Part shown: piece by piece, positions 14,474-54,352 of the stretch
Layout of the letters: each line of letters starts with the position of its first letter
Position numbering within the stretch: position 1 is the first letter of the stretch
Source of the DNA: a virus
Lineage: Duplodnaviria > Caudoviricetes
Direction: 5' to 3' (one strand)
IMG/VR virus record: IMGVR_UViG_3300025084_003138
Coordinates: 1,905-65,904 of that record
Length of the DNA stretch: 64,000 nucleotides
Translations under genes and position numbers: made by a program
Notes under the pieces: model-generated
Databases searched by the model: none
The model's input: the letters and a program-made list of their open reading frames with translations, nothing else
Told to the model about the DNA's origin: nothing

Positions 14474-14827
14474 ATGGACCCTCGTCTTGAAAACGCATTA
14501 TCTTTTGCAAATTATAATCTCACACTCGAAAAAGAAAAACTACAAGCCAAAGAAAATTTTAGAATAGGTAGAGTAATTTATCGAAATAAAGGACAGTTTA
14601 CTATTACAGTTGAACTACTATCTTATTGTAAAATTCTAATTGATTCTGACAACACCGAAGATGTTGTGCTAATAGACGATAATGAAACCCCAATTTTAAT
14701 TGAAGATCTAACAGAATTTTATCAATTAATTTTGTCTCAATATTCGATTGTGTGTAATGATTACTACGAACGTTTTTCTTCATTGTCGAAAAAACGAAAT
14801 GTTGAGGACATAGTGTTTAATGACTAA
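14474..14827 (+). CDS. Hypothetical protein, 117 aa
   Basis: ORF with strong RBS; overlaps the next gene; no recognisable motif. Confidence 0.75.
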   Translation: MDPRLENALSFANYNLTLEKEKLQAKENFRIGRVIYRNKGQFTITVELLSYCKILIDSDNTEDVVLIDDNETPILIEDLTEFYQLILSQYSIVCNDYYERFSSLSKKRNVEDIVFND

Positions 14828-15677
14828 AGGGGTATTATTATTTGCAAATAATAACGAAAGTATAGATTATGTAACGCAAGCATACCAGTTAGCAAAGCGT
14901 ATAAATCAATATTTAAATTTACCTACTAGCATTGTTACTACTGACAAAAATTATCTGCAAAAAACATTTAGCGACTATGATGAAGTATTTGATGAAATTA
15001 TCGAAACTGACCAAGAGTTAGTTAAGAATAATAGAGTTTATCATGACGGTATTGCATCTAATCAAATTCTAAATTTTAGGAATAATCTAAGACCATATGC
15101 ATATGATTTATCGCCTTATGACAGTACTATTGTAATGGATGTTGATTATATTATATGTAGTGATCATCTTTCAAAATGTTTTGATCAAACAGAGGATTTC
15201 CTAATCTACAAAGACGGAACATATTTAGGAATTGACGAAAAATATACAAAAGAATTTAGTTATGTAAGCGACGGTGGAATAGATTTTTATTGGGCTACTG
15301 TTGTTTATTTTGAAAAGACAAAAAAGAACAACGTATTTTTTGAGTTATTAAAACATATACAAGATAACTGGTATCACTATGTACTATTGTATAAACTACC
15401 TAACACAATGTATCGAAATGATTTTGCTTTTAGTATAGCAATACACATAATGAATGATTATGGTTCTTTAGATATGTTTAAAACAATGCCAACAAGTATT
15501 CTATATACTCTAGACGTTGATATATTACATTCTATAAAAGATGATGTGTTAATTTTATTAACTGGAAAACAAGGACATCCAGGAGAATATGTAGCACACA
15601 GGACTCAAGGATTAGATGTACATGTAATGAATAAATTTAGTCTAGATAGATTATACAAAGGAGAACAACATGTCTAA
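14820..15677 (+). CDS. Glycosyltransferase-like protein (GT-A fold, GT8/GT71-like)
   Basis: N-terminal KGVLLFA strand, 'PYAYDLSPYDSTIVMDVDYII' with a DxD motif, 'YWATVVYF', 'RNDFAFSIA', 'HVMNK'; paralogous to 15670..16530. Confidence 0.6.
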   Translation: MTKGVLLFANNNESIDYVTQAYQLAKRINQYLNLPTSIVTTDKNYLQKTFSDYDEVFDEIIETDQELVKNNRVYHDGIASNQILNFRNNLRPYAYDLSPYDSTIVMDVDYIICSDHLSKCFDQTEDFLIYKDGTYLGIDEKYTKEFSYVSDGGIDFYWATVVYFEKTKKNNVFFELLKHIQDNWYHYVLLYKLPNTMYRNDFAFSIAIHIMNDYGSLDMFKTMPTSILYTLDVDILHSIKDDVLILLTGKQGHPGEYVAHRTQGLDVHVMNKFSLDRLYKGEQHV

Positions 15678-16530
15678 GGGTTTTGTTTTTCTTGCTCAAA
15701 ATAACGATACAACTGATTATGTTAAACAATCATATTTGTTAGCATGTAGTATCAAAGCTACACAACACACAAATAATGCAACCTGTTTAATTACAAACGA
15801 AGTAGTACCTGAAGAGTATAAAAAAGTATTTGATCATATTGTAGATATTCCGTGGAGCGATGATGCAAAAGAATCTAAATGGAAAATTGAAAATAGGTGG
15901 AAAATATACCATGCTACTCCGTTTGATGAGAATATTGTATTAGATACAGACATGTTAATTCTAGAAGATATTGAACATTGGTGGAAATATTTAGATTCAT
16001 ATGACTTATATTTTACAACAAATGTTAGAACATTTAGAGATAAACCGATTACTGAAGGATTATGGCATTATAGAAAAGCATTTATTCGATATGATTTACC
16101 AAAGATATATGTTGGCGTACATTATTTTAAAAAGTCCGAACTAGCCCACAAGTTCTATAAATGGTTAGAATTTATAAATCAAAATTGGGAAATGTTTTAT
16201 GGAGAGTTTGCCGGAGGCAATGCTTTTCAAAAATGGGCAAGTATTGATGTAAGTTCGGCAATAGCAATTAAGCTTCTAGGTATTAGTAGTCAAGTTACAA
16301 ATTCAATAAGCGATATTCCGAAATTTGTGCATATGAAAACATATCATCAAGGAGTAAGTAATTTACACAACAGTTGGCAAGGATATGTAAATTCATATAT
16401 GGACGACGAATTAAATTTGAGAATTGGTAATTATAAGCAAAATGGTATATTTCATTATGTAGAAGATAGTTTTGTTACAGATTCTCTAATAGAGAAATAC
16501 GAAGGATATTTAAGTAAAAATGAATTTTAA
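15670..16530 (+). CDS. Glycosyltransferase-like protein (GT-A fold), paralog of the preceding gene
   Basis: 'KGFVFLAQN', 'YHATPFDENIVLDTDML' (DxD), 'YVGVHYFKKS', 'FVHMK', 'FHYVE'; same motif layout as 14820..15677. Confidence 0.6.
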   Translation: MSKGFVFLAQNNDTTDYVKQSYLLACSIKATQHTNNATCLITNEVVPEEYKKVFDHIVDIPWSDDAKESKWKIENRWKIYHATPFDENIVLDTDMLILEDIEHWWKYLDSYDLYFTTNVRTFRDKPITEGLWHYRKAFIRYDLPKIYVGVHYFKKSELAHKFYKWLEFINQNWEMFYGEFAGGNAFQKWASIDVSSAIAIKLLGISSQVTNSISDIPKFVHMKTYHQGVSNLHNSWQGYVNSYMDDELNLRIGNYKQNGIFHYVEDSFVTDSLIEKYEGYLSKNEF

Positions 16531-17116
16531 AAAAGAGTTTTCTCGATTAAATGCACTGTCACATAAAGATCCTAAGTGGTATTGTAATTTTGATAAAAAA
16601 ACTGGAGTAATTTATTCAGTTAAGAATCATAATAACGACAGCGATAGTTACATTACTATAGAGCATACTATGGCACTTGATTTTAATAATAGAAATAAAA
16701 GTTTAGACGATTATCAGATAGTTTGGAATAAAGATCAAAAGAAGTACAAACTATTAAAAAAAACAGATACAACAATTGAATCTGTAAAAAACACATTTAT
16801 GGAAATTACTAATAACGAAGTAGGCGAAGTTGTAGTTACTAAAAATTATAAAACTAAAGAGTGGCAATTTTCAGTTGACAACGATGTTAAAGAGCGTTAT
16901 AATAATGGAACAGTAATAGAAGGAGATGCATTGCATTTTAGTGTAACAGCAAAGTGTAACCCGCATATTCTTTATAGAACTATTACAGTTTCGATTGTGG
17001 AATTATTCGAAAATGATGTGAACATTAATTTCGATAATAGTGACATACAACAAACTAATTTTAGTATCTACACTAATAAAAAGATAGACTCGTATGCAAT
17101 TAAAGAGCTTATATAA
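16520..17116 (+). CDS. Hypothetical protein, 198 aa
   Basis: Overlap-coupled ORF within the GT block; no recognisable motif. Confidence 0.7.
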   Translation: MNFKKEFSRLNALSHKDPKWYCNFDKKTGVIYSVKNHNNDSDSYITIEHTMALDFNNRNKSLDDYQIVWNKDQKKYKLLKKTDTTIESVKNTFMEITNNEVGEVVVTKNYKTKEWQFSVDNDVKERYNNGTVIEGDALHFSVTAKCNPHILYRTITVSIVELFENDVNINFDNSDIQQTNFSIYTNKKIDSYAIKELI

Positions 17117-18060
17117 TGGATAATAAATTTAAAATTGTCGACTATGATATTATATATCTAAGTTATGATGAACCAAATGCTGAAAAAAACTATGCAGATT
17201 TGTGTAGTAAAATTCCGTGGGCAAAAAGAGTACATGGTGTAAAAGGTTCAGATGCCGCGCACAAGGCATGTGCAGAATTAAGTGAAACAGATCGTTTCAT
17301 TACAGTAGACGGCGACAACATAATACACACAAAGTTTTTACATAAAGAATATGATCTCAGTTCACATGAAGATACTCATTGGAACAGCAATGTAGATTTT
17401 GATAAGTGTGTAATAAGTTGGACAGGCCGTAATATAATTAATGGTTTAGAGTACGGTAATGGCGGCTTAAAATGTTGGCCTAAAGAGTACGTGTTGAATA
17501 TGCGTACACATGAAAATGCTGACCCTGACAATACCCATGCACAAGTAGACTTTTGTTGGGATCTCCAATATATACAAATGAATACGTGTTACAGCGAAGT
17601 AATGAATAATGCAACTCCGCAACAAGCATGGCGAGCTGGATTTAGAGAAGGTGTTAAAATGGCACTTGATCGAGGAGTAAGGCCTACGCAGGAAGATTTT
17701 CTAAATGGACATTGGAAAAACTTACATATGCTTTGGATATGGATGATGATTGGTGCAGATGTAGAAAATGGACGCTGGGCTATATACGGTGCAAGAGAAG
17801 GTTTGTACAAGACAATGTGTACAGATTGGGACTATGTACAAGTTCGTGACTTTGAATGGCTTAACGACTACTGGAATAGCAAACAATTAGATGAAGATCA
17901 AATGGAACAGGACACAGTTGACCTTGGGTATTCATTAATAGATGAGCTTCAGTTGCCTATCGCAGCTGATCCTCTTAACGGAACTCAAAGTTTATTTTTT
18001 AAAACAGTATATCAAACACCTGAAAGACGAAAACAAGATCTTTTGATTGAAAGTACATGA
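17116..18060 (+). CDS. Glycosyltransferase-like protein (GT-A, DGD motif)
   Basis: YDIIYLSYDEPNA...RVHGVKGSDAAHKACA...FITVDGDN...YGNGGLKCWP...AWRAGFREGVKM; clearly homologous to the C-terminal domain of 28945..31560. Confidence 0.6.
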   Translation: MDNKFKIVDYDIIYLSYDEPNAEKNYADLCSKIPWAKRVHGVKGSDAAHKACAELSETDRFITVDGDNIIHTKFLHKEYDLSSHEDTHWNSNVDFDKCVISWTGRNIINGLEYGNGGLKCWPKEYVLNMRTHENADPDNTHAQVDFCWDLQYIQMNTCYSEVMNNATPQQAWRAGFREGVKMALDRGVRPTQEDFLNGHWKNLHMLWIWMMIGADVENGRWAIYGAREGLYKTMCTDWDYVQVRDFEWLNDYWNSKQLDEDQMEQDTVDLGYSLIDELQLPIAADPLNGTQSLFFKTVYQTPERRKQDLLIEST

Positions 18061-19469
18061 CAGATAATATTAAAGGTGACGAAGTAACTCTACTTAATGG
18101 AAAATATAAAAGTGTATATTTTGAAAGTAGTAAAGAAGTACTTGACGGACTTAATAGCGTAAGTCCTAGTTTTTGTTTGGCTAAATGGTATAATGTAAGT
18201 ATACACATTCCAACTGGTCAAACACATAGCTGTTATCATCCTCCAACACACAAAATACCGTTAGATGAATTAGCAAAATCTGCCGATGCCCTGCATAACA
18301 CAAAACATAAAAAAGAACAGCGTAAAAAAATGCTTGCAGGAGAGCGTCCTAAAGAATGTGAATTTTGTTGGGCAATTGAAGATCAAGGCAATATTAGTGA
18401 TCGTGCGTATCGTAGCAAGGATGTGTATCAACCGGGAATGTTAGAACAAGCCCTAACTGACGAAAATCCTAAACCTAGATATGTAGAAGTTAATTTTAAT
18501 CAGGCATGTAATTTAAAATGTGCATATTGTAGTCCGCACTTGTCAACAGAATGGCATAAAGAAGTAAAAAAACACGGGTCGTATAAACTTGCTGACAAGG
18601 AACACAATCATCCAAATTGGGTTGATAGTTTAGGTATTAATAATGCTCCTGATAGTCCTTATGTACAAGCATTTTGGGAATGGTTTCCTGATATATATCC
18701 TACACTTACAACATTTCGAATGACAGGCGGCGAGCCTTTAATGGATAAAAATACGTTTAAAGTATTTGATTACGTAAAACAAAATCCTAATAAAAATTTA
18801 CACCTAAGTATTACTAGTAACTGTTCACCTCCAAAAGGTCAATGGGGTAAATTTATGACTAGTCTAAAAGAAATAACAGATGCAGATGCAATTGATCATT
18901 TTATGTTATTTTGTAGTTTAGATAGTTGGGGCGAGCAAGCTGAATACATTCGTAACGGACTCAATTTTGAGGATCTTTACAAAAATATTACACAATACCT
19001 AAGAGAAAGCTCGAAGCACAGTTTAACATTTATTGTAACTGCTAATTTATTAAGTTTACCTGGCTGGACTGAATATATTAAAAATATTCTTAAACTGCGT
19101 CAAGAATTTAATACTGATCGTCAGCTAATTTGGTTTGATACTCCTATGTTACATGACCCTAAATGGTTAAGTATGAAGTTAGCAAACAAAGAAATGTTAC
19201 AACCTTTGTTAGATAGCATTGAATTCATGGAGTCTAATAAAGAAACTACTAACAACAGATTCAAAGGGTTCAAAGATTATGAAGTTGATAAAGTCAAAAG
19301 ACTGTATAATTGGGCAGTTGAACCATTAAATACACAAGAAGAGTTTTTAGCTAAAAAGAATTTTGATTTGTTTTTTACACAACATGATACTAGACGAAAT
19401 ACTAATATAAGAAAAACGTTTCCAGAATTAACAACCTTTATAGAAGAATGTAGGATAATAAATGAGTAG
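18057..19469 (+). CDS. Radical SAM enzyme with N-terminal twitch (half-SPASM) domain
   Basis: N-terminal CLAKW..SCYH..CEFCW Fe-S ligands; CxxxCxxC = NQACNLKCAYC; MTGGEP; CSLDSWGEQAEYIRNG. Confidence 0.9.
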   Translation: MTDNIKGDEVTLLNGKYKSVYFESSKEVLDGLNSVSPSFCLAKWYNVSIHIPTGQTHSCYHPPTHKIPLDELAKSADALHNTKHKKEQRKKMLAGERPKECEFCWAIEDQGNISDRAYRSKDVYQPGMLEQALTDENPKPRYVEVNFNQACNLKCAYCSPHLSTEWHKEVKKHGSYKLADKEHNHPNWVDSLGINNAPDSPYVQAFWEWFPDIYPTLTTFRMTGGEPLMDKNTFKVFDYVKQNPNKNLHLSITSNCSPPKGQWGKFMTSLKEITDADAIDHFMLFCSLDSWGEQAEYIRNGLNFEDLYKNITQYLRESSKHSLTFIVTANLLSLPGWTEYIKNILKLRQEFNTDRQLIWFDTPMLHDPKWLSMKLANKEMLQPLLDSIEFMESNKETTNNRFKGFKDYEVDKVKRLYNWAVEPLNTQEEFLAKKNFDLFFTQHDTRRNTNIRKTFPELTTFIEECRIINE

Positions 19470-20817
19470 AGATAAAAGAGTTGATGCAGTTGCCGAACGG
19501 TTAAACAACATCGGACCAGGGTTTTGTACACAGAAATGGTTACATGAAACATTATATCTGCATACAGGTGACAATCACAGTTGTTATCATCCAAGGCCTC
19601 ATCATATTCCTTTAGATGAAATTGCAGAAGACCCAAGTGCATTACATAATACTAAATGGAAAAAAGAACAACGTAAAACAATGCTAGAGGGCGGTAGACC
19701 CGACGAGTGTTATTACTGCTGGAATATTGAAGATCTAGAGGGCGAACATTTAAGTGACAGACATTTTCATAGTGCTAGTTCTTATTCAGAACCAATAATT
19801 GAAGAAGTAGCAAAATTACCTTGGGATCAACATATTAATCCACGCTATCTAGAAGTTAGTTTTGGGAATGGATGTAACTATCGTTGTGGTTATTGTTGTC
19901 CGCAGGCAAGTACGTTGTGGATGGACGAAATTAAAAAACATGGAAATTATGATCTAACATATAATCAATATGGAATTGAATTTTTAGAGCACGGTACTTA
20001 CTACGGACCTAAAGACGATAATCCGTATATCGAAGCATTTTGGAAATGGTGGCCTAGTTTACGCAAAGATCTACACACACTACGTATTACTGGTGGTGAG
20101 CCTCTTATGAATCCTGGCGCAATGCAATTTTTTGATCTATTAGAAAAAGAACCTGCTCCTCAATTAGAAATCAGTGTTAATAGTAATTTTGGAGTAACTA
20201 CTAATAAACATGATCGTATGCTTAATAGAGTACAAAATTTATTAGATACTAATAAAATTAAAAAGTTTACACTGTTTACTAGTATAGATACTTGGGGACC
20301 GCAAGCAGAATATATGCGTACAGGATTACAGTTAACACATTGGGAACGTAATTTAAAAAAAGCACTAAGTATGGGATTCGAAGTAAGCATAATGTGTACT
20401 TTCAATGTGCTTTGTGTATCTAACTATAAAAGTTTAATGCATAAAATGATTGAATGGCGTGAAGAGTTTGGAAAAAATGCAATTAGATTTGATGTTCCAT
20501 ATCTTAAAGAACCTCCGCATTGGATGATAAACATTTTACCTGAATCATTTATACCATATATGGACGACACATTAAAATTTATTGATGATAATATGGATAA
20601 ATTTAAAGCACAAGAATATGAAAAATTCAAACGTGTAACTAATTATATGAAAACTAATCCTGTTGATCCGCAAAAGATTAAACAAGGGCGTAGAGACTTT
20701 TATAGTTTCTTTGAAGAAAATGACAAACGCCTTGGATTAAATCTATTAGAAGTATTTCCAGAGTACACAGAGTTTTATGAACAATGTAAACAGGTATACG
20801 AGTCTTACGAAGTCTAA
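19462..20817 (+). CDS. Radical SAM enzyme with N-terminal twitch domain (close paralog of the preceding gene)
   Basis: CTQKW..SCYH..CYYCW; GNGCNYRCGYC; ITGGEP; TSIDTWGPQAEYMRTG. Confidence 0.9.
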   Translation: MSRDKRVDAVAERLNNIGPGFCTQKWLHETLYLHTGDNHSCYHPRPHHIPLDEIAEDPSALHNTKWKKEQRKTMLEGGRPDECYYCWNIEDLEGEHLSDRHFHSASSYSEPIIEEVAKLPWDQHINPRYLEVSFGNGCNYRCGYCCPQASTLWMDEIKKHGNYDLTYNQYGIEFLEHGTYYGPKDDNPYIEAFWKWWPSLRKDLHTLRITGGEPLMNPGAMQFFDLLEKEPAPQLEISVNSNFGVTTNKHDRMLNRVQNLLDTNKIKKFTLFTSIDTWGPQAEYMRTGLQLTHWERNLKKALSMGFEVSIMCTFNVLCVSNYKSLMHKMIEWREEFGKNAIRFDVPYLKEPPHWMINILPESFIPYMDDTLKFIDDNMDKFKAQEYEKFKRVTNYMKTNPVDPQKIKQGRRDFYSFFEENDKRLGLNLLEVFPEYTEFYEQCKQVYESYEV

Positions 20818-20883
20818 ATTACCAGTTATTATAATAACGCAAGTGTAAATAAGATATATAACAATAAAGGATGTACAACAATT

Positions 20884-22095
20884 ATGATTGATGATACAAA
20901 TAAACAAAGTTGGTGTGTAAACGCTGAACATGCAATGAGTGGCGACAACACAGGTGAAACTAAAATTTGTTGTATGACACGATTTATGAATAGACGCTTG
21001 TCGATTGGTAGAGAGACTATTCAAGAAAACTTTAATCAACCTGACTTTGTAGAAGTACGTGAAGCACTTGCAAAAGGTGAACGCCATGATGTGTGTAAAC
21101 TTTGTTGGGAAGAAGAAGATGCTGGACGTATGAGTAAGCGATTACGAGATAACGAAAAATATGTCAATATGATCGAACAAGGCGGCAAGCCGTTTAAAGG
21201 ACTTGCTAAATTTGAATTAAATCTAGGCAATCAATGTAATCTTAAATGTAGAACTTGTGGGCCTCATTCGAGCAGTACTTGGCTTAAAGAAAGATTTGAT
21301 AGGCAAGAAACAGATAATTACACCGACTTTAAAGCCTATGCTAAAGAAATGCGCAAGTTTAGTAAATGGTACGAGTCGGATAGTCCGTTTTGGGACGACT
21401 TTGATAACAACTTAGAAAATATTAATCAGTTAGACTTTTATGGCGGCGAGCCGTTTATGAGTGAAAAAATGTGGGGCACTTTAAGAAAAGCAGTTGAACT
21501 TGATTATGCAAAAAATATCGAATTACATTATGCAACAAACTGTACAAAATGGCCTGATGATGTTGAAATACTTAAAGAGTTTAGACATCTAAATTTAAAC
21601 TTTAGTATTGATGGAGTACACGACGGATTCAACTATATGAGATATCCCGGCGATTGGGGCGAAGCAGAAGTAACTCTAAATAAAGCAAGAGAATTTGCAA
21701 AAACTCATCCAGATATACATATGAGTTGGATTATCACATTGAGTACTATTAACATTCATAACTTACCTGAAATAATTGCAGAGTACGAAGAAAAATATAG
21801 CGACTTTGGTATTTTCTTAAACTTAGTACATAGTCCTAAATATTATAACATTAATATTTTACCTGACGGTATTAAAGAAGGAGTTATTGAAAAAATAGAA
21901 TCAATTCCTAAAGACTCGTTTGTTTGGACAAACTATTTGCCAGGAGTAATTCAATATATTAAAAATGGCACTCCGAATATTGGCTTATGGAAACAAGCAA
22001 TGAGAGAAATAAAATGGCAAGATACTTATAGAGAACAATCGTTTAAAGATGTGTATCCAGAATATCATCAGTTAATACAGGATGTTTCTAAATGA
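20884..22095 (+). CDS. Radical SAM enzyme with N-terminal twitch domain
   Basis: WCVNAE..ICC..CKLCW..SKR; GNQCNLKCRTC; FYGGEPF; FSIDG..FNYMRYPGDW. Confidence 0.9.
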   Translation: MIDDTNKQSWCVNAEHAMSGDNTGETKICCMTRFMNRRLSIGRETIQENFNQPDFVEVREALAKGERHDVCKLCWEEEDAGRMSKRLRDNEKYVNMIEQGGKPFKGLAKFELNLGNQCNLKCRTCGPHSSSTWLKERFDRQETDNYTDFKAYAKEMRKFSKWYESDSPFWDDFDNNLENINQLDFYGGEPFMSEKMWGTLRKAVELDYAKNIELHYATNCTKWPDDVEILKEFRHLNLNFSIDGVHDGFNYMRYPGDWGEAEVTLNKAREFAKTHPDIHMSWIITLSTINIHNLPEIIAEYEEKYSDFGIFLNLVHSPKYYNINILPDGIKEGVIEKIESIPKDSFVWTNYLPGVIQYIKNGTPNIGLWKQAMREIKWQDTYREQSFKDVYPEYHQLIQDVSK

Positions 22096-26891: not shown

Positions 26892-26908
26892 TATAAAGGA
26901 AATAGATC

Positions 26909-44457: not shown

Positions 44458-44463
44458 TATGCA

Positions 44464-44516
44464 ATTACTTATAAACCAGTATTATACTAAGACAATACTT
44501 TTGGCTTATAAGTAAT
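44464..44516. promoter_or_regulatory. Back-to-back divergent late-promoter-like motifs (11-bp inverted repeat, TATAAGTA each way)
   Basis: attacttataa (44464-44474) and ttataagtaat (44506-44516) are exact reverse complements in the gap between the divergent starts at 44457 (-) and 44536 (+). Confidence 0.6.
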
Positions 44517-44535
44517 ACATAAGCGAGGAAAAAAT

Positions 44536-46943: not shown

Positions 46944-47589
46944 TATACGTTCTAGTGGTACAACAGGCACCGCAAAAGCAATCTTTCAAAGTCCTACAAA
47001 AATAAAACATGCAAATCGTATTGCATGTGATGTACAAAAAATTACTAAGAATAGTAAAATTTACACAGTTTGCAATTTAGATCACGCAGGTGGCTTACTT
47101 GCACAGACATTGCCAGGATACGAAATAGGTGCAGATGTCTATATAGAAAATTTTAATGCTTATAGATGGGTAAGTCGTATTAAAGACTTTACGCATTCAC
47201 ATCTTACACCAGGGATGGCATTGGCTATAAGCAAAACTAAAGGTTGGAATAATTTAGATTTACAAGACAAGATTATTGTATGTGGTAGCGACAAAGTTCC
47301 TGCAGAGTGTATTAATAGATATTTAGATAAAGGAGCAACATTTATTGCAAATTGGGGTATGAGTGAAATTGGTCCTATTGCAATAAACAAAACTTTTACT
47401 TCGGAAGGTCCTTTAGTACATGATTTGCCCGGACATACTATTATGGGCGACACTGCGTTTTGTGAAACAAAAATAATTAGACATGAGTTATATGTTAAAG
47501 GTGATATCTGTGTATATGACGATTGGTTTGCCACAGGCGATATAGTAAAAAAAGTAGATGGAGAATATTGGTATTATGGCCGAAAATAA
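46909..47589 (+). CDS. Truncated ANL-family adenylate-forming (AMP-binding) protein
   Basis: SSGTTGTAK P-loop near the N-terminus, HAGG, NWGMSEIGP, WFATGDIV, ending at YYGRK (hinge); only 226 aa. Confidence 0.75.
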   Translation: MELKNILKNGTSIRSSGTTGTAKAIFQSPTKIKHANRIACDVQKITKNSKIYTVCNLDHAGGLLAQTLPGYEIGADVYIENFNAYRWVSRIKDFTHSHLTPGMALAISKTKGWNNLDLQDKIIVCGSDKVPAECINRYLDKGATFIANWGMSEIGPIAINKTFTSEGPLVHDLPGHTIMGDTAFCETKIIRHELYVKGDICVYDDWFATGDIVKKVDGEYWYYGRK

Positions 47590-48304
47590 TTGTATCTTAA
47601 TTAACTTCCCACAAGGAGCCGGCGGACATATGTTAGGTCGTATGCTTGCTAGTTGTGATAATATTGCATGGTATGACCATGAACAAAATGGAGAATATCC
47701 TTGGATGCCTTATTGCTCACCTGGTGACGATAAATTTAGTAAAATGCATTTTAATAAACGTTTTAAAGGTGCATCAGAAAAAGGCGCAGATAAAAATCGT
47801 ATTCCTCCTATTTTGCGTACAGCTGAACAACGTGATATCACTACTACATCACAAGACATTGCAGAATGGAAGCAAAGGCTAAGTCCTAAAAACTTTATAT
47901 ATACAAATCATGAACTACTAGACGATACAAAAAAATTATTTAATCCTGCCAAGTATATAGTTGTTATACCAGAAGATATTGATTTGCTTATTGAACGTTG
48001 GATGCGTAGTAGTTATTATTACTATTTTGACCCAGCACGTAAAGACTATCTGTCAGGAGATTTATATAGAGATAAAGCCAAAGAGCAAGGCATCACTATG
48101 AAACAAGCACTACGTAATGATTTTGAAGTGCAGTTGTCTAATTATAAAGAATATGTAACAGACGATGATATTATTGTAAATGAAGTGAATGATATACTAG
48201 ATTATGATTACTTCTCAGCAGTATGCAAAAAATTAGAACTTGTAGTTAACAAAAATAACTATTTAAAAGTAAAAGAGTTATTTAAAAACAAATCACATCT
48301 TTAG
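47576..48304 (+). CDS. Hypothetical protein with a Gly-rich P-loop-like N-terminus (kinase/sulfotransferase-like fold possible)
   Basis: ILINFPQGAGGHMLGRML; the start could alternatively be 47558. Confidence 0.55.
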   Translation: MAENNCILINFPQGAGGHMLGRMLASCDNIAWYDHEQNGEYPWMPYCSPGDDKFSKMHFNKRFKGASEKGADKNRIPPILRTAEQRDITTTSQDIAEWKQRLSPKNFIYTNHELLDDTKKLFNPAKYIVVIPEDIDLLIERWMRSSYYYYFDPARKDYLSGDLYRDKAKEQGITMKQALRNDFEVQLSNYKEYVTDDDIIVNEVNDILDYDYFSAVCKKLELVVNKNNYLKVKELFKNKSHL

Positions 48305-49018
48305 TATTTCAAAATAAAAACGTTGTCTATCTTTTTTATATTGTTCTAACTTGCAGTTGTATTCTTTTGCGAGAGCATATGCAAATTCAAAACTCCACGG
48401 AAATATATCTACGTAAGGACCTTTAGGCCAAAGTATTCCTGGATTAACTCTGAAATACATTCTTCCACCTACGTCTAGTAATGAATGTAACTTTTTAAAA
48501 CGAGTGCGTATATCCGCTTCATCGCCAAAGTTCAAACTACCAAATACAATCATATGATCATACTTTTCATCTACATTAAAGTCTAAAATATCTACCATGT
48601 AGTCTGCATTTTCGTTATATGGATCAATTCCTGTTAAATTTTTAATACGTGGTTTAAATTGATTATACCCACAACCAAAGTCTAGAACATTTTTTGGATT
48701 TCGTTCATTTATTCTATCAACAATACTCCAGCCACTAAACGTATGATCATCTGTGTTTGGTTTCCAAATTTCGCCAAAGAATCGCTTCATATAAATTTTA
48801 TCTAATGATTGTACAAAATGTTCAACAGTTCCAGATAGTTGTAAATGTTCTATATCTAACTCGTTCATAATTGCTTGTGCAAATTTTTCTCTACGTACAG
48901 GAGTGAACGGAAGATCATCTAATATACTAAGCTGGTTTAATTCTAGTCCGTCATATTTAGGTAGACTAAAGCTATCTTTTAAATTTTGCATGACTAACGA
49001 AAAAATTCGTGTATTCAT
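48293..49018 (-). CDS. Acyl-carrier-like N-terminal domain fused to a class I SAM methyltransferase
   Basis: C-terminal VLDFGCGYN, LTGIDPY, YDHMIVFGSLNF, LLDVGGRMYF. The N-terminal ~75 aa follow an ACP-like helix pattern (see findings). ATG 49018 is preferred over GTG 49030. Confidence 0.75.
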   Translation of the reverse strand: MNTRIFSLVMQNLKDSFSLPKYDGLELNQLSILDDLPFTPVRREKFAQAIMNELDIEHLQLSGTVEHFVQSLDKIYMKRFFGEIWKPNTDDHTFSGWSIVDRINERNPKNVLDFGCGYNQFKPRIKNLTGIDPYNENADYMVDILDFNVDEKYDHMIVFGSLNFGDEADIRTRFKKLHSLLDVGGRMYFRVNPGILWPKGPYVDIFPWSFEFAYALAKEYNCKLEQYKKDRQRFYFEILKM

Positions 49019-49106
49019 AATTTTTTTCACTTTCTATTAAAAAAATACCACTTTTTTCTAAAAAAGTGTTTCTTTCATATAATTAATTATGTAACAAGGA
49101 AAAATT

Positions 49107-50540
49107 ATGGCTTCATTATTGGCATTACTAGCAGGTACGTTTTACGGTTTAATTATTGGCATATTGCCTGGCGCAGGTGCTACTACAGGATTAATATTTG
49201 TGTTTTCATTTATTACACTGTTTCCTGATCCGTATCTAGCAGTAATATTTGTAATGGCAGTTGTCGCTGCTAGTACAACAGGAGATACTTACACAGGTGT
49301 GTTGCTAGGAATACCTGGTGCTAATAGTGCGGCTGCTACAATGATAGATGGATTTCCGTTAGCATTACAAGGACAAGCAACATATGCAATTAGTTCTGCT
49401 GTTACTACAAGCACACTTAATGGATTATTATGGGGTTCACTTACATTCTTTTTGTTGCCTTATTATACACAATTGATAATGGTGTTTGGTGTACCAGAGC
49501 TTTGGGCATTCACAATGTTAGCAATGGTATGTGTTACATTTGTTACAAACAAATTTTGGTTTAGAAGTATGATTGCTTTGAGTTTAGGTTTGTTTGTAGG
49601 ACTGATAGGTGTAGATCCAAGCACAAATGCAGATAGATGGACAGGTGGTTGGGAATACCTAGGTGATGGTGTACAACTTATGCCGTTAGTTGCTGGCTTA
49701 TTTGCTATACCAGAATTAATTGACGGATTAAAACAACGTACTAACACTAGCATGCCAGAATTAGCAAATGGTGTACAGACTAAGCAAGGTATAATGGCTG
49801 TATGGCACAACAAGTGGGACGCACTACGTGGCGGATTTATAGGAGCATTTATAGGGCTTTTGCCTGGACTAGGTGGCGCAGTTGCAGACTGGATGGCATA
49901 CAGTTCAACAGTTGCAAGTCATCCTAAAGAAAGATTTGGTAACGGAAATATTAAAGGTGTCATAGGCCCAGAAGGTGCTAACAACGCACAAAAGGCAACA
50001 AGTATGATTCCTACAGTTTTATTTGGAATACCAGGAGCAAGTTTTGCCGCTATTGTAATAGGACTATTTGCATACTTAGACTTTGAATTAGGTACCTTAG
50101 AGCTTGCAATGGACACAAAGTTCTTTGATAGTATGTTATATGGCTTTATGCTTGCAACAGTGCTTGTAGGCGCTATATGCTTGTTTACGACACCACTTAT
50201 AGCACGAATTGCACAAATACCCTACAAATACTACTTTCCAGTATTGTTGGGCTTTATTGTGCTTGCATGTGTACAATACACAGGCGGTTGGGAAGATTAC
50301 TTTATACTAGTAGTATGTAGTATCGTAGGACTACTAGCAAAGAAATACAAATTTAGCAGACCTGCACTGCTATTTGCTTTTATTCTAGCAGATAGAATAG
50401 AAGCCTTAACGGTACAAATGGCAGGACTTTATACAGTTGAAAAACTGTTACACAAACCAATATTCCTCGGCTTATGTGTTGCAATAGGTGTAACATTGCT
50501 ATGGGGGCTAACATCAAAAAGGAAAATAGATTATGCGTAA
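49107..50540 (+). CDS. tctA: Tripartite tricarboxylate transporter large membrane subunit
   Basis: GLIIGILPGAGAT, GVLLGIPGANSAAATMIDGFPLA, GLLPGLGG..ADWMAY, GPEGANNA, PTVLFGIPG; highly hydrophobic, 477 aa. Confidence 0.92.
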   Translation: MASLLALLAGTFYGLIIGILPGAGATTGLIFVFSFITLFPDPYLAVIFVMAVVAASTTGDTYTGVLLGIPGANSAAATMIDGFPLALQGQATYAISSAVTTSTLNGLLWGSLTFFLLPYYTQLIMVFGVPELWAFTMLAMVCVTFVTNKFWFRSMIALSLGLFVGLIGVDPSTNADRWTGGWEYLGDGVQLMPLVAGLFAIPELIDGLKQRTNTSMPELANGVQTKQGIMAVWHNKWDALRGGFIGAFIGLLPGLGGAVADWMAYSSTVASHPKERFGNGNIKGVIGPEGANNAQKATSMIPTVLFGIPGASFAAIVIGLFAYLDFELGTLELAMDTKFFDSMLYGFMLATVLVGAICLFTTPLIARIAQIPYKYYFPVLLGFIVLACVQYTGGWEDYFILVVCSIVGLLAKKYKFSRPALLFAFILADRIEALTVQMAGLYTVEKLLHKPIFLGLCVAIGVTLLWGLTSKRKIDYA

Positions 50541-51576
50541 ATTAATATTAGGACTTGTGTTTGCTATGGTAACTTCTGTAGCACATGCAGATTATACAAT
50601 GATAGTACCACAGAAACCAGGAGGCGGCACAAGCGTCTGGGCAGAAATTGTTGCTAAAGAATTAGAAAAATATCTAGGTGAAGATATCAACATTAAGCAC
50701 ATTCCAGGTGCAAGAGACATTCCAGGATTTAATGCTTGGCACAATGAAATGCGTAATGACGATAAAGTTATTATGGTATCACATGGCGGCAATGGCGTTG
50801 CATTCTTACAAGAAGAAGTTGACTATAACTACGGTGAATATGAATCAGTAGGACTTATGAACTTAAATATTATTGCAGGAAAGCGTATCGGTGAAGATAT
50901 GAATAGTCCAAGTTTTGCGGCAGGTAGCGGACAGACACCTGAAGCATATGCAATGACAATGCTTATCTGTGGTCCACAAACGTCTATGGATGCATATGTA
51001 AAATGCTTTAAAGATAATGTGCAATGGGTAAAAGGTATGAGTGGAAGTGAAAGACGTCTTGCATTTAGACGTGGTGAACTTACTGGTACAAGAGAAAATC
51101 CAGCAGCATACAAAAAGCATGTAGCACCGGACGACAATGCAGAAATTTGGTTTCATCATGGAATACTACAAGAAAACGGAACACATGCTGACGATCCAAA
51201 CTATCCTGGTTTCCAGTTTGAAAAGTTATATGAAAATCGTTGGGGTGTAGCACCAAGCGGTGAATTTTATGATGCTTACAAACTAGTAAAATCATTTAGA
51301 GATGGTATGCAAAAAGCATTATGGGTTAACAGAGGTAATCCTAATGCTGAGAAGCTACAAGCTGCATTAACTGAAATGTCTTTGAATGCAGAAAGCAGAG
51401 CAATCATAGAAAAGAAGGTTGGTAAATACGAATGGAAGATTGGCGCAGAAGGCAATGCACATAGAGATACACTTATGAGTTTTGTTACTGTATCAGCTTT
51501 AGAAGACCTTGTGTACTTTAATACAAACGCTTTAGGTCTTGCAAGTGTATTTAAAATGGAACTAGCATCTAAATGA
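50533..51576 (+). CDS. tctC: Tripartite tricarboxylate transporter periplasmic binding protein (Bug/TctC)
   Basis: Signal peptide (MRKLILGLVFAMVTSVAHA), TMIVPQKPGGGTSVWA, NIKHIPGA, ERRLAFRRGELT; directly follows tctA. Confidence 0.8.
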   Translation: MRKLILGLVFAMVTSVAHADYTMIVPQKPGGGTSVWAEIVAKELEKYLGEDINIKHIPGARDIPGFNAWHNEMRNDDKVIMVSHGGNGVAFLQEEVDYNYGEYESVGLMNLNIIAGKRIGEDMNSPSFAAGSGQTPEAYAMTMLICGPQTSMDAYVKCFKDNVQWVKGMSGSERRLAFRRGELTGTRENPAAYKKHVAPDDNAEIWFHHGILQENGTHADDPNYPGFQFEKLYENRWGVAPSGEFYDAYKLVKSFRDGMQKALWVNRGNPNAEKLQAALTEMSLNAESRAIIEKKVGKYEWKIGAEGNAHRDTLMSFVTVSALEDLVYFNTNALGLASVFKMELASK

Positions 51577-52277
51577 AAATTGTTATTTCACATGGTAGCG
51601 GGGGAATTGGCTCTGCTGAAACCTTCGCCCGTGACTTTTTTGAAAGTAAAGGATATGATGTACATCTTATAGATTATTTTACTCCGCATGGCATCGACCG
51701 AATAAGATGGAGCGAAAAAGAGCCTGATAATTACGATGTTACTTTTAAGGAAATGTTTAACGTAGATTTTCCTAAAGGTGATTTAGTACATATAGGGTTT
51801 AGTCTTGGTGCTTTTCTAGGCATTGTTAATCATGCAAAGTTTGTTAAAAATTATTTGTTTTACCCCGGAGTACTGGGAATAACACAAGAGATGTTAGATG
51901 TAGATTATAGTAATGCAAGTGTAATCTTATGTGGTAATGATAAAGGAAAATACAAATATGAAAAATTTAAAAGTCTTTTAAAAAAACCGCCACTGACTGA
52001 ATATATGCTTCCTTACACACATCATGCATTTATGATTGAAGATATTGATTTTGAATTTAACATGGTACGCTATAATACAACGGGTAATATAATGAGTTCA
52101 GATGAGTTTTCTCAATTAAAGCCTAACCATAAATATCTTAGCGAACGATATGGTCATACTACTTCTCCTACACATTTATTGTTTGATAAAGAATTAAGAT
52201 GGCAATATTTAAATCATATAGAAGAAGATATCAATGAAACCTTTCTTAGTGTTCGAAAACGGAACAACATATACTAA
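51573..52277 (+). CDS. Alpha/beta hydrolase (dienelactone-hydrolase-like, Ser nucleophile)
   Basis: SHGSGG, nucleophile elbow IGFSLGA, C-terminal PYTHHAF. Confidence 0.75.
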   Translation: MKIVISHGSGGIGSAETFARDFFESKGYDVHLIDYFTPHGIDRIRWSEKEPDNYDVTFKEMFNVDFPKGDLVHIGFSLGAFLGIVNHAKFVKNYLFYPGVLGITQEMLDVDYSNASVILCGNDKGKYKYEKFKSLLKKPPLTEYMLPYTHHAFMIEDIDFEFNMVRYNTTGNIMSSDEFSQLKPNHKYLSERYGHTTSPTHLLFDKELRWQYLNHIEEDINETFLSVRKRNNIY

Positions 52278-53400
52278 ATCTCAGTTTGATAAAGCTGCTA
52301 AAAAATATGCCAAGCAATTAAAAAAAGCTGGTTATGACAAAACATGTCGTATTGGAGTTTTTAGTAATACTGAGAATGTATTTAAAATTTTTGGGGCTAT
52401 GCAAGTGTGTAGCCCTGTTATTATAGACCATACTATGACCGAGCATGAGCTTAGTTACTACAATATAGATATATGGAACGATATACTTCCACAGCCGCGA
52501 TACAATCAATGTAACACAGATGAAGTTGTAGGTATATGTAGCAGCGGCAGTACTGAGAAACATCGTATAATACCAATTACTGAAGATCAATACTACCGAG
52601 ATGGATTAGATAATAATATACAAATTCATGGTAACATTACAGAAAATGACAGCACTATAAATGTTATACCATTATGGGTTTGTATAGGCTTTCAAACATT
52701 TGCACTATGTTATAAAACAGGAGCAACATACTATATTTTAGATGATCCGTGGAAATTTTGGCCTAGTGTAAATCCTACATTTATTATAGGAAGTCCAAAT
52801 GTGCTACGTGGAATGATGTCTCCTAATGTGCTTTATGAAAACATGACTATACGCCATATAAGGACCGTTGGCGCACCTATGTATAAAGACTTTAAAATAG
52901 AAGCACAAAAGTTTTTCAATTGTATTACTACAGACAGTTACGGAGTAAATGAAATAGGCACTATTAGTATAATGCATTATCCGCAAAAGTACAACAGTGT
53001 AGGTTACGTTTTAGATAATATCGACTGTAAAGTAATCGATAATGAAATAATTGTAAATAATTTTGCAACAGGAGATCTAGGACATATAGATGAAGATGGA
53101 TTTCTTTTTATAACAGGTAGAAAAAAAGAAACAATTATAAATGGCGGCTGGAAAATTATGCCTTATGAAGTAGAACAAGCATTGTTAGATTCAGGAGCAT
53201 CTGATGTAGTTGTGTTTGGGTATGATACTGTGTATGCAGAAGTAGTGGGTAAAATTGATTTAGACTTACTAAAGTCAAAAATAGCTAGATATAAAATTCC
53301 TGAAAAAATATTTTATGTTGAAAGTATTAAACGAAAAGGCCAAGGTAAGATTAACAGGAAGAATTTATTAGATGAATATAAACAAAATAGAAAAATATGA
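52234..53400 (+). CDS. ANL-family acyl-CoA ligase/adenylate-forming enzyme
   Basis: ICSSGSTE, DSYGVNEIG, FATGDLGHIDEDGFLFITGRKKE, MPYEVEQAL, YKIPE, GQGKINRK (A10 Lys). Confidence 0.85.
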   Translation: MKPFLVFENGTTYTKSQFDKAAKKYAKQLKKAGYDKTCRIGVFSNTENVFKIFGAMQVCSPVIIDHTMTEHELSYYNIDIWNDILPQPRYNQCNTDEVVGICSSGSTEKHRIIPITEDQYYRDGLDNNIQIHGNITENDSTINVIPLWVCIGFQTFALCYKTGATYYILDDPWKFWPSVNPTFIIGSPNVLRGMMSPNVLYENMTIRHIRTVGAPMYKDFKIEAQKFFNCITTDSYGVNEIGTISIMHYPQKYNSVGYVLDNIDCKVIDNEIIVNNFATGDLGHIDEDGFLFITGRKKETIINGGWKIMPYEVEQALLDSGASDVVVFGYDTVYAEVVGKIDLDLLKSKIARYKIPEKIFYVESIKRKGQGKINRKNLLDEYKQNRKI

Positions 53401-54352
53401 CTGGTATGAAGATTATATAGTGCATTGGCGCCCTACCAATATGTGTAATTATGATTGTAGTTATTGCGAGCCTTCTAATCATCACGCAATCGACAAGCGA
53501 AAATTACCAAATGTAGAAGACTTAATTGCTGCTGCTAAAAAGATAAGAGATAGTGTTCCTGCAGATAAAAGTGTGTTAGTTTATATTACAGGCGGCGAGC
53601 CATTCTTGATCAAAGATGTACATAAGTGGTTTAACTGGATGGGTGAAAATAATATTAGAGTGGGCATTTTTACAAACGGAAGTTTGCCATTAAAAATATA
53701 TGATATGAGCAAAGAGTCATTTAAAAACATTAATATCAAAATAAGTTTTCATCCTGAGTTTGCCGAAATTGATAGAGTTGTTGAGTTTGTTAATATGATT
53801 AAAGAAAACAACGGCAACGTAGAAATCCGTGCAATGATGGCAGCAGGATTATTTCATAAAGTAGATGAATTAGAAGAAAAGTTGCTCAATACTCCTATTG
53901 TAAGATTGCCTGTATTTCCGTTATATAATAAAACAACACAGGAAGTCAATCCTACTTATTCTTCGAGTAGATTTTTAGAAGGGTACAAGCAAAAAATGGA
54001 TGACGGGCAGCTAGGGTATTATACTAAAGATGAGTTAGATACACTTGAAAACTTAGAACAGGATGAACCTACTTATTTAAGTTGTACTGTAAATAATGAC
54101 ATTGAAACTAATGCTGTTAATTTTGTAACAGAAAGAACAAACAAGTTTAAAGGCTGGACATGCGGTATTGTTAATAAAAAAATATTAATAGAAGCTAACG
54201 GAAATGTAAAGTATGGAACTTGTGCTGCCACAGGTATCATTGGTAACATATTTGAAAAAGAAATAGATCTATTTAAAGAGGAATGGACTATTTGCGGTAA
54301 AGAAGTTTGTAGTACTCTTGATGAAATAATGGTTACTAAGTTTAAGGTGTAG
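53372..54352 (+). CDS. Radical SAM enzyme with C-terminal twitch-like domain
   Basis: TNMCNYDCSYC; ITGGEPF; FTNGS; ISFHPE; C-terminal FKGWTCG..GTC..GNIF..ICGKEVC. Confidence 0.88.
   Translation: MNINKIEKYDWYEDYIVHWRPTNMCNYDCSYCEPSNHHAIDKRKLPNVEDLIAAAKKIRDSVPADKSVLVYITGGEPFLIKDVHKWFNWMGENNIRVGIFTNGSLPLKIYDMSKESFKNINIKISFHPEFAEIDRVVEFVNMIKENNGNVEIRAMMAAGLFHKVDELEEKLLNTPIVRLPVFPLYNKTTQEVNPTYSSSRFLEGYKQKMDDGQLGYYTKDELDTLENLEQDEPTYLSCTVNNDIETNAVNFVTERTNKFKGWTCGIVNKKILIEANGNVKYGTCAATGIIGNIFEKEIDLFKEEWTICGKEVCSTLDEIMVTKFKV

Follow-up and report, generated by a model that had tools for sequence, protein, structure and literature searches.

The 64-kb window analysed here, taken out of the 65.9-kb linear viral contig IMGVR_UViG_3300025084_003138 (Duplodnaviria; Caudoviricetes), carries between two sets of tail-fibre genes an island of about 40 kb (positions 14474-54352), whose predicted products are well supported as a sugar-building and sugar-editing pathway. 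This assignment follows from a core of GT8-like and GT-A glycosyltransferases, from a DegT-family aminotransferase, a carbamoyltransferase and HldE-/HldD-like proteins, and from bacteria in which related arrays of radical S-adenosylmethionine (SAM) enzymes lie beside sugar genes; it sustains the sugar-directed enzyme set that an initial annotation of this DNA had proposed. We tentatively favour the reading that this cassette-built locus makes a short, heavily edited sugar structure, which would most likely be put on the phage's own virion, with the fibre-like protein g13388 as the best candidate acceptor.

The setting of the island is constant. Predicted virion proteins bracket it on both sides (annotation here and below combined an open reading frame (ORF) map with Pfam, NCBIfam and PHROG scans, selected AlphaFold2 models and Foldseek/PDB searches):

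2-7411, + strand: giant virion structural protein of the left flank (phrog_10938 at E 8e-70)
7435-8049, + strand: conserved baseplate or structural protein (phrog_11259), which served as synteny anchor
8053-10059, 10056-11771 and 11814-13373, + strand: three paralogous tail fibres (PHROG tail and tail-fibre families)
13388-14407, + strand: fibre-like protein g13388, candidate acceptor or part of the module
54342-56300, - strand: right-flank tail fibre with an Mtd_N N-terminal domain (Pfam E 2.3e-10), convergent with the island

The 50-60 kb downstream of the anchor gene in four related records (G001, G002, G004 and G005) were compared with every protein of the window. The left fibres and the right convergent fibre with the genes beyond it are kept in all relatives, the right side at up to 85% identity, and the giant virion protein is kept in 75 of 80 related loci. 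The islands that these flanks enclose measure about 27, 38, 43 and 28 kb and differ largely in content, and in two further relatives that have no island (L060 and L071) the + strand fibres stop about 70 bp before the - strand fibre. Island lengths overall are 0, 27, 28, 38, 40 and 43 kb, the 40-kb island described here being among the largest compared; the conserved flanks around a variable island for which the initial annotation had suggested looking are therefore present (same flanks, islands of 0-43 kb). The island always sits between two convergent fibre modules, and it is missing together with g13388 in L060 and L071. Scored across loci, g13388 and the island start were both present in 43, both absent in 2 and discordant in none (4 further loci were not evaluable).

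Closely related strains differ by the replacement of cassettes, in agreement with the proposal of a strain-variable product locus. Seawater and virome contigs that match the window at 95-97% identity over 37.0-45.65 and 51.57-57.0 kb are devoid of the cassette at 45.65-51.57 kb, which reaches from a halogenase-like gene through a TctC-like gene, with an acyl-adenylate (ANL) fragment, a methyltransferase and TctA between them. In one virome contig, 45653-46775 (the halogenase-like gene) is swapped for 1283 unrelated bases. There is thus cassette-level structural variation within one phage population, and swaps are seen even among strains 95-99% identical. The first 10 kb of the island are near-identical in at least 16 marine studies.

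The anchor protein occurs at 75-84% identity in >600 IMG/VR stretches (contigs up to 262 kb) and shares 45-57% identity with proteins from Agrobacterium phage Atu_ph07, from Sinorhizobium phage Phosso and from Rak2-like jumbo phages; because of this resemblance the source is assigned to an uncultured marine jumbo myophage. The completeness of the contig was estimated by a CheckV-type method at 18%, corresponding to a genome of about 350 kb, and related records are likewise estimated at about 350 kb. The giant virion protein exceeds 3100 residues, its frame being open back to the 5' end of the contig, where it runs off. The three + strand fibres share an N-terminal anchor domain (motif GYG..NEN..LENFA..GQIW.D). 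No reverse transcriptase was seen among the annotated right-flank genes beyond the Mtd_N fibre, diversity-generating repeats not having been searched for. A chimeric assembly of island and host DNA, raised initially as a possible refutation, is unlikely, since the composition along the stretch is even (30-39% G+C), the layout recurs in independent contigs, and a bridging contig out of another sample spans 44144-56999 at about 99.9% identity.

As initially described, overlap-coupled genes fill the space between fibres ending at 14407 and starting at 54342: the island holds 39 ORFs, same-strand neighbours overlap in 28 of 34 cases, about 99% of the sequence is coding, and the intergenic gaps in the island region are short (14-168 nt). 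The inventory comprises 11 radical SAM proteins, four to five glycosyltransferase-like proteins, HldE-/HldD-like proteins, a DegT protein, a carbamoyltransferase and TctA. A PHROGs scan of 20 unannotated island proteins returned no informative match.

A core is common to all four relatives, namely g14474, the GT8-like pair, g17116, paralogues of radical SAM enzymes with an N-terminal twitch (N-twitch) and g28945. The core genes other than the radical SAM genes, with a weaker transferase candidate, are:

14474-14827, + strand: g14474, a 117-residue helical protein, core
14820-15677 and 15670-16530, + strand: two paralogous GT8/glycogenin-like glycosyltransferases, core
16520-17116, + strand: g16520, 198 residues, in core position, with no family match
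17116-18060, + strand: g17116, a predicted GT-A-fold glycosyltransferase in which a VDGDN (DxD) motif is conserved and the C-terminal domain is helical, core
26067-26891, + strand: g26067, GT9-like with a GT-B C-terminal motif, a weak assignment (Pfam Glyco_transf_9 E 2.6e-4 over 34 residues)
28945-31560, + strand: g28945, 871 residues, core, whose C-terminal unit is a GT-A domain homologous to g17116
33981-34799, + strand: g33981, a class I methyltransferase-fold, spermidine-synthase-like protein, core, weakly assigned

Each of the 56 homologues of g14474 is the first gene of its island. In the AlphaFold2 model of g14474 (mean pLDDT 91) two long helices flank a small beta insert of hairpins, and a fold search with this model returned nothing from the PDB at E <= 0.001. 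Likeness to prefoldin was considered and dropped as not significant (TM 0.37-0.40, probability only 0.2), and a role as fibre chaperone is a guess only. The GT8-like pair, for which no Pfam match was found at E <= 0.01, occurs in all relatives; the profile of its family aligns to glycogenin-1 and -2 (E 1.8e-5) along ~100 N-terminal residues, and a DxD-type aspartate cluster is conserved (consensus VLDTD). The gene that follows, g16520, has 25 weak homologues at the equivalent position.

The g17116 family is 53-73% identical among the relatives and has an invariant VDGD motif. Its profile gave no significant match to PDB sequences; the AlphaFold2 model (mean pLDDT 83) places a GT-A fold at residues 4-165, with Z 9.3 to B4GALNT1, 8.6 to STIV A197 and a moderate 8-9.3 to many GT-A enzymes. 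Generic GT-A enzymes rank top by Z, and the Foldseek matches at E 3e-4 include the peptide-glycosylating ThuS/SunS and the capsid transferase A64R of chlorovirus PBCV-1. In the ESM Atlas g17116 falls among viral 'GT2-like' clusters. Its homologue g28945 is found in four of four relatives (43-54% identity), and both g17116 and the g28945 C-terminus are predicted to adopt a GT-A fold with a DxD motif, at moderate Z. Homologues of g33981 occur in G001, G002, G004 and two bacterial loci; they share the motifs IxGGWxG, IDID and NTSCEH (consensus), and the family profile matches spermidine synthases weakly (E 0.026-0.19). A single-sequence PDB search with g26067 gave no significant match. The five glycosyltransferase-like proteins counted at the outset accordingly become four to five, with g17116 and g28945 held by fold and homology, the GT8 pair by profile and the GT9-like protein weakly.

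The same core is found in a cultured phage. Among 50,697 GenBank phage records, g14820 (the first of the GT8-like pair), g17116 and the g18057-type radical SAM protein together matched only the Ralstonia jumbo phage RsoM2USA (MG752970, ORF347-355), and they did so in the same order. In this distant phage the module again stands directly behind a fibre gene, ORF355, whose C-terminus resembles g13388. It consists of the fibre, a 117-residue protein, two GT8-like proteins, an unassigned gene, a GT-A protein, an N-twitch enzyme, a second GT-A protein and a methyltransferase-fold protein, at 27-47% identity to the island (g14474, 30%; GT8-like pair, 36-37%; g17116, 47%; g28945 against the ~230-residue ORF348, 42%), with ORF347 as the homologue of g33981. 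Unlike the island, this module is minimal: it spans ~7 kb, has a single radical SAM enzyme and lacks accessory cassettes. Every gene in it is annotated as hypothetical, and mass spectrometry, which identified ten virion bands, did not find the module proteins among them (PMC8504454). A closer relative from a sediment metagenome has the order fibres, 117-residue protein, two GT8-like proteins, unassigned gene, GT-A protein and five radical SAM enzymes, with a B12 radical SAM enzyme later. Queried with the more divergent N-twitch protein g20884, about 28 Vibrio phages gave weak matches to radical SAM genes. Elsewhere in MG752970 (7739-8398, - strand) lies a second, divergent ThyA-family gene (85 bits vs 242 bits for the canonical copy), whose product could by its sequence be a pyrimidine hydroxymethylase.

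The largest enzyme group of the island consists of radical SAM proteins, of which 11 had been counted initially; the CX3CX2C motif is intact in 11 of 11, and 9 of the 11 pass or nearly pass the Pfam threshold, the other two being weak:

18057-24477, + strand: five consecutive radical SAM enzymes, with N-twitch proteins at 18057, 19462, 20884 and 23347 and a core-first protein at 22092
26909-28906, + strand: class B radical SAM enzyme with B12-binding and Radical_SAM domains
31635-32477, + strand: small radical SAM enzyme, overlapping the carbamoyltransferase gene
34941-37175, - strand: fusion of a PP-loop ATPase with an N-twitch radical SAM enzyme (NF033640 287 bits on residues 308-712)
38964-40202, - strand: N-twitch radical SAM enzyme g38964, overlapping the DegT gene
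40968-41315, then 40199-40984, - strand: two-gene radical SAM enzyme, a Cys-rich 115-residue protein followed by a bare core
53372-54352, + strand: small radical SAM enzyme g53372 (Radical_SAM 44.6 bits)

Six of these proteins are assigned to the curated family NF033640 (N_Twi_rSAM), for which a score of 170 bits and full-length model coverage are required: g18057 (322 bits), g19462 (311), g20884 (286), g23347 (222), the C-terminal part of g34941 (287) and g38964 (279). Like the family, they have a four-Cys N-terminal module, CX3CX2C and GGEP; a 13-member alignment has invariant N-terminal Cys 11, 30, 71 and 74, followed by the CNxxCxxC core and GGEP, and g22092 matches the model partially. 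Whereas the family is a curated sequence model, here its members form arrays in a phage, one of them fused to a PP-loop ATPase. We found no paper that characterises NF033640 in the literature on the N-terminal twitch. Homologues of g18057 number >5,500 among metagenome proteins, many at 70-83% identity. The B12-binding enzyme is a probable C-methylase; its best NCBIfam matches are ApyD, PhpK and a C-methylase for peptides made on ribosomes and modified after translation (RiPPs), all far below cut-offs. The split enzyme occurs in the same order in G001 (L084:13275-14358, 63% and 73% identity) and thus appears to be a stable two-gene arrangement rather than a recent break.

The island resembles the pathways of BtrN, AprD4 and GenK in combining radical SAM enzymes that carry an auxiliary cluster or a B12 domain with DegT and carbamoyltransferase genes nearby, and the initial annotation had drawn an analogy to aminoglycosides. 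The shared vocabulary stands; the pathway-level likeness does not, since no equivalog cut-off was reached for BtrN, GenK, AprD4 or TobZ-type enzymes and the auxiliary twitch domain is N-terminal, not C-terminal, in six proteins. AprD4 was the only aminoglycoside-pathway radical SAM model among the NCBIfam matches, at 27 bits vs 500, with no BtrN- or GenK-type model, and no gene for an aminocyclitol scaffold was found.

Bacteria hold counterparts of the N-twitch part of the locus. A scan of one genome per prokaryotic species returned 273 relatives of the N-twitch enzymes, and the best 80 of these 273 come overwhelmingly from Bdellovibrionota (closed chromosomes included), with some from Bacteroidota, Legionellales and others. 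Within the predatory Bdellovibrionota they are concentrated in Bdellovibrionales, Bacteriovoracaceae, Halobacteriovorax and Oligoflexia (L098-L176). The genes form tandem arrays, often of 2-6 copies and at several loci per genome, and their neighbours are homologues of the island's other radical SAM types, of its carbamoyltransferase, B12 radical SAM enzyme, hydroxylase and DegT protein, and PfkB kinases. Carbamoyltransferase homologues occur in 9 bacterial N-twitch loci and 2-oxoglutarate (2OG) hydroxylase-like homologues in five, and the g53372-type protein is the best match for 18 ORFs across these loci. Among the 25 Pfam families listed first, 124 ORFs from nine chromosomal loci include 39 radical SAM, 13 SPASM, 9 GT2, 4 DegT, 3 PfkB, 2 carbamoyltransferase and 2 GDSL matches. 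A Halobacteriovorax locus contains SIS, cytidylyltransferase-like, carbamoyltransferase, GT2 and DegT genes, and a Chitinophagales locus contains NTP_transferase, two GT2, DegT, carbamoyltransferase, a B12 radical SAM enzyme and six further radical SAM enzymes. Read gene by gene, the Halobacteriovorax, Chitinophagales and H. marinus loci showed nothing recognisable as a flippase, polymerase or lipid-carrier transferase.

Three contigs of 43-183 kb from metagenome-assembled genomes (MAGs) of Haliscomenobacter and Legionellales (L099, L100 and L106) have an order very like that of the phage island, with several g18057-/g20884-type radical SAM enzymes, a B12 radical SAM enzyme and a carbamoyltransferase. 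Possibly these contigs stem from jumbo phages and were sorted into MAGs.

These bacterial clusters, which look like self-contained sets of soluble enzymes without polysaccharide export genes, are an argument for a free small molecule, i.e., an aminoglycoside-like pseudo-oligosaccharide or nucleoside-type metabolite that would work within the infected cell or outside it and be directed, for example, against competitors or host defences. The island's DegT protein, carbamoyltransferase, B12 and twitch radical SAM enzymes, ANL ligases and halogenase-like flavoprotein likewise belong to the vocabulary of sugar natural-product tailoring. Yet no enzyme reaches the equivalog cut-off for any known antibiotic pathway; a scaffold-forming enzyme (e.g., of the 2-deoxy-scyllo-inosose synthase type), an exporter and a self-resistance gene were not recognised in the island; and a core of four to five transferases linked to a fibre suits a macromolecular acceptor better. 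We therefore regard a free metabolite as distinctly improbable.

The remaining genes, accessory cassettes among them, are:

24471-25364 and 25361-26089, + strand: two SGNH/GDSL-like proteins, on motif evidence (GDSF at residue 7 in both)
32474-33988, + strand: NodU/TobZ-family carbamoyltransferase with N and C domains (Pfam Carbam_trans_C E 1.7e-69)
37225-37914, - strand: free-standing PP-loop paralogue with an SGGxDS motif
37904-38977, - strand: DegT-family sugar aminotransferase (DegT 297 bits), overlapped by 38964-40202
42467-43609, 41646-42470 and 41312-41662, - strand: heptose-type accessory cassette of an HldE-like protein, an HldD-like protein and a WbuC-like cupin
43606-44457, - strand: g43606, 283 residues, first gene of the - strand operon, with no informative family match
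44536-45156, + strand: Asp/Asn-hydroxylase-like 2OG oxygenase (Pfam 19.7 bits, cut-off 22.6)
45153-45674, + strand: 173-residue protein adjoining the oxygenase-like gene
45667-46740, + strand: halogenase-like flavoprotein of 357 residues (Pfam Trp_halogenase 198 bits)
46909-47589, + strand: ANL fragment (Pfam)
47558-48304, + strand: protein without assigned family, in the strain-variable cassette
48293-49030, - strand: methyltransferase (Pfam), in the strain-variable cassette
49107-50540, + strand: TctA (312 bits)
50533-51576, + strand: TctC-like g50533 (signal peptide predicted; PGGGTS motif; PDB match no better than E 0.62)
51573-52277, + strand: alpha/beta-hydrolase-like g51573 with a GFSLGA nucleophile-elbow motif
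52234-53400, + strand: ANL ligase (AMP-binding 65 bits)

Several assignments proposed at first sight are clear by Pfam, namely the DegT protein, the carbamoyltransferase, the B12 radical SAM enzyme, the two ANL proteins and the Trp_halogenase-family flavoprotein. Others hold in part. The pair proposed as TctA/TctC has a firm TctA, the sole island protein with more than one predicted transmembrane segment, and a TctC named from its signal peptide, its motif and a PDB match at the E value given above; no tctB was recognised beside them in the island. The SGNH pair stands by motif, without an HMM or PDB match (a single-sequence PDB search with g24471 included), and the hydroxylase and second methyltransferase have sub-threshold support. 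Single-sequence PDB searches with g50533 and g51573 gave no significant match. The DegT protein is closest to PseC and LegC, under their cut-offs. The carbamoyltransferase and its radical SAM neighbour at 31635-32477 recur as a pair in G001 (67% and 84% identity, respectively).

The cassettes of the relatives vary in kind as well. In their four islands, the 25 Pfam families listed first include 36 radical SAM proteins, 7 Asp/Asn-hydroxylase-like proteins, 3 TauD, 3 B12-binding proteins, 2 UDP-glucose dehydrogenases and ABC importer parts. In place of TctA/TctC, the relatives' islands L085, L088, L091 and L094 carry the ABC importer parts (two permeases, a solute-binding protein and an ATPase). 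As importers differ between islands, substrate import seems to be a recurring accessory function.

The two PP-loop ATPases (SGGLDS and SGGADS) bear on whether nucleic acid is the target. They had been labelled as QueC-like domains, and the SGGxDS motif is present; the QueC match, however, is 21.3 bits, below the cut-off, and covers the C-terminal 50 residues only. If transferases and radical SAM enzymes decorated modified bases of DNA (or RNA), the phage could evade restriction, and DNA is indeed a known substrate of phage glycosyltransferases (Pyle et al. 2024, cited by PMC12619734). In addition to this weak QueC likeness, the second ThyA-family gene of RsoM2USA would fit such hypermodification. 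A 7-deazaguanine system is recognised by QueC above threshold along with TGT/DpdA; here QueC is below it, and TGT/DpdA is absent from five related records (up to 73% complete) and from the complete RsoM2USA genome. A ThyA-family gene is likewise absent from the five marine records, which are incomplete, no DNA-binding or base-flipping domain was recognised, and the island sits in the fibre module, away from replication genes. Nucleic acid is thus a very unlikely target.

Equally improbable to us is a locus for protein maturation, in which radical SAM enzymes, hydroxylases and a LodB/GoxB-like flavoprotein would cross-link, epimerise or hydroxylate fibre residues, with sugars being secondary. 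SPASM/twitch radical SAM enzymes often act on peptides, and the secondary NCBIfam matches of the island's enzymes are peptide maturases, albeit all far below cut-offs. The flavoprotein has degenerate motifs (GSGTAA for GxGxxG, WLWSIS for WxWxIP), and its best NCBIfam matches, again far below cut-offs, are GoxB and LodB, which mature proteins; the Asp/Asn-hydroxylase-like family recurs with the 7 copies in the relatives' islands. Yet the core consists mostly of transferases, the bacterial clusters hold sugar-nucleotide enzymes, and the intergenic gaps leave no room for a precursor-peptide gene, for which reason a RiPP locus was set aside.

The heptose-type cassette had been considered part of the system; its distribution marks it as an accessory three-gene insertion. 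Homologues are absent from the islands of G001, G002 and G004 and from the RsoM2USA locus, and G005 has only weak, distant matches outside the corresponding position, so that the cassette is missing from all four relatives' islands. Its flanking genes g43606 and g40968 are directly adjacent in G001, where g43606 is 71% identical. The enzymes named HldE and HldD are homologous proteins that fall below equivalog cut-offs, and hence are to be called 'like'. The HldE-like protein (380 residues vs about 475) scores 281 bits vs 521 with the bifunctional model NF008454, and 186 vs 345 and 158 vs 181.5 with the models for domains I (TIGR02198) and II (TIGR02199), its kinase domain starting at model position 98 owing to a short N-terminus. 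The HldD-like protein (274 residues vs 316) scores 235 bits vs 274.6 with TIGR02197. The cupin is WbuC-like with a weak score and matches phrog_7851 at E 7e-37. Pfam scans found no SIS or HAD family match among the island proteins, and GmhA and GmhB would thus need to be supplied by the host.

Sigma-70-type promoters suggest that the island is a transcription unit of its own, separate from the fibre genes:

14421-14449, + strand: near-consensus sigma-70-type promoter TTGACA-17-TATACT in the gap before g14474
28910-28938, + strand: perfect sigma-70 consensus promoter TTGACA-17-TATAAT directly 5' of g28945
34800-34940, between the + and - operons: convergent gap with an inverted repeat (~20 bp) and T and A runs, read from the sequence
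62734-62794, - strand: consensus or near-consensus sigma-70 promoter before a right-flank gene

Of 46 distinct relatives, 28 have the promoter type of the island start in their corresponding gap, although sequence identity around it is low, and a second subgroup has another conserved motif there, GTAAATAGTTATAC. Perfect sigma-70 sites are expected by chance about 0.05 times per 20 kb (a rough estimate). The inverted repeat at 34800-34940, which a simple terminator scan missed, is a probable bidirectional terminator. By these signals the island is probably transcribed early, via the host polymerase. Among the listed data sets that carry the island, none was of RNA. A cDNA-labelled run (X19) yielded small contigs on parts of 40.8-44.9, 52.5 and 54.3-57 kb; it was flagged as probably DNA and was not counted.

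Early-type promoters also favour the view that the host envelope is the target, where the lipopolysaccharide (LPS) core, the O-chain or another surface glycan would be altered and superinfection, or the sticking of progeny to debris, would be blocked. The GT8-like, GT9-like and HldE-/HldD-like proteins constitute an LPS-core vocabulary, TctA and the signal-peptide-bearing TctC-like protein would act in the host envelope, and pelagimyophage islands with GT8, rfaE, UDP-glucose dehydrogenase, transport and radical SAM genes have been read as modifying the O-chain (PMC7029224). On the other hand, none of the island proteins was recognised as a flippase, polymerase, ligase, polyprenyl-phosphate transferase or membrane-anchored transferase, and such export and lipid enzymes are likewise missing from the first 25 families that each tally lists and from the three bacterial loci inspected gene by gene. 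The heptose genes belong to the accessory part rather than the core, and an envelope target leaves the tie of the module to a fibre-like gene unexplained. We consider it an unlikely target, albeit the strongest competitor of the virion.

For a virion-borne sugar structure, the steps and the acceptor that we infer would be as follows. The promoters at 14421 and 28910 would turn the locus on through the host polymerase. Accessory cassettes would supply activated or modified sugars, the HldE-/HldD-like proteins and the cupin through a heptose-nucleotide branch and the DegT protein by amination of a keto-sugar, while the TctA/TctC-like importer and the ligases would provide a carboxylate side group. 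Two GT8-like transferases, two GT-A transferases (DxD) and possibly a GT9-like one would then build a glycan on the acceptor. Radical SAM enzymes (six N-twitch, one B12-dependent and four others) might rewrite this glycan by hydrogen abstraction, with oxidation, epimerisation, deoxygenation or C-methylation as options, and the carbamoyltransferase, methyltransferase-fold proteins, SGNH esterases, 2OG hydroxylase and flavoprotein could modify it further. Gain, loss and replacement of cassettes would render the product strain-specific.

Apart from the shared position and distribution of island and g13388, and the RsoM2USA module behind its g13388-like fibre, two points argue for the virion. The structural matches of g17116 include enzymes that glycosylate peptides or capsids (ThuS, SunS and PBCV-1 A64R), and by its model the GT-A fold resembles PBCV-1 A64R and Mimivirus R699. 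No lipid-carrier enzyme was recognised in the island, where TctA alone has more than one predicted transmembrane segment. There are also precedents. Mycobacteriophage capsid and tail proteins are glycosylated by phage-encoded transferases (Freeman et al. 2023, as cited in PMC12619734), and the same paper describes a 'moraphage' lineage with four core glycosyltransferase orthogroups. As in mycobacteriophages, chloroviruses (A64R) and Mimivirus (fibrils), the virus has transferases beside structural genes, a likeness at the level of genes. We know of no radical SAM arrays in the established virion-glycosylation systems.

Several observations weigh against the virion as the target. The only link to the virion consists of adjacency to, and co-occurrence with, a fibre-like gene, and the co-occurrence depends on two island-less loci that possibly reflect one evolutionary event. 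The classical place of GT8 and HldE/HldD enzymes is the LPS core. The sigma-70-type promoters point to an early expression apart from the structural genes, and importers (TctA/TctC here, ABC parts in relatives) serve the host cell rather than the virion. The fibre-like adhesins of Bdellovibrio prompted a BLAST search of the bacterial clusters for the phage fibres, g14474 and the GT8 pair, and no homologue of any of these came up. The fibres, initially described as Ser/Thr-rich, contain 19-22% Ser+Thr, which is ordinary for fibres. Finally, what places hypervariable islands beside fibre genes often has nothing to do with the virion (PMC7029224).

The initial annotation had called the system undescribed, which goes too far: NF033640 is a curated family, and fibre islands with GT8, rfaE and radical SAM genes are known from pelagimyophages as hypervariable 'host recognition clusters' (HRCs; Zaragoza-Solas et al. 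2020, PMC7029224), located in a T4-like genome between VrlC and the neck protein gp14. Like the HRCs of pelagimyophages and cyanomyophages, the island is hypervariable, lies within the structural module and mixes fibres with glycan genes, among them GT8, rfaE (HldE), transport and radical SAM genes, and metagenome reads are under-recruited in both. Unlike the HRC phages, which are T4-like and infect SAR11 or cyanobacteria, the phage described here has flank proteins closest to Atu_ph07/Rak2-like jumbo phages, the islands being compared by description. Literature searches on jumbo phages with radical SAM enzymes and glycosyltransferases, and on ADP-heptose with phage fibres, found no paper on this system. 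What the locus adds is an inserted heptose-nucleotide cassette, a TctA/TctC import cassette, the replacement of cassettes between near-identical strains and a link to a cultured phage.

A bolder proposal, which we consider doubtful, is that the N-twitch enzymes perform a new kind of post-assembly glycan editing on receptor-binding fibres, that the set of cassettes writes a strain 'glyco-serotype', and that the chemistry is shared with predatory Bdellovibrionota and some Bacteroidota. RsoM2USA provides a cultured phage in which the minimal module is testable.

About 40 kb, roughly a tenth of the estimated 350-kb genome, are given to this locus. The thousands of ocean homologues and the recurrence in marine studies indicate an abundant but unstudied part of ocean virus biology. 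If the product is carried by the virion, it would give phages a new means of varying or shielding the organs by which they recognise hosts; if directed at the host, it would amount to a large, strain-specific reprogramming of the cell surface.

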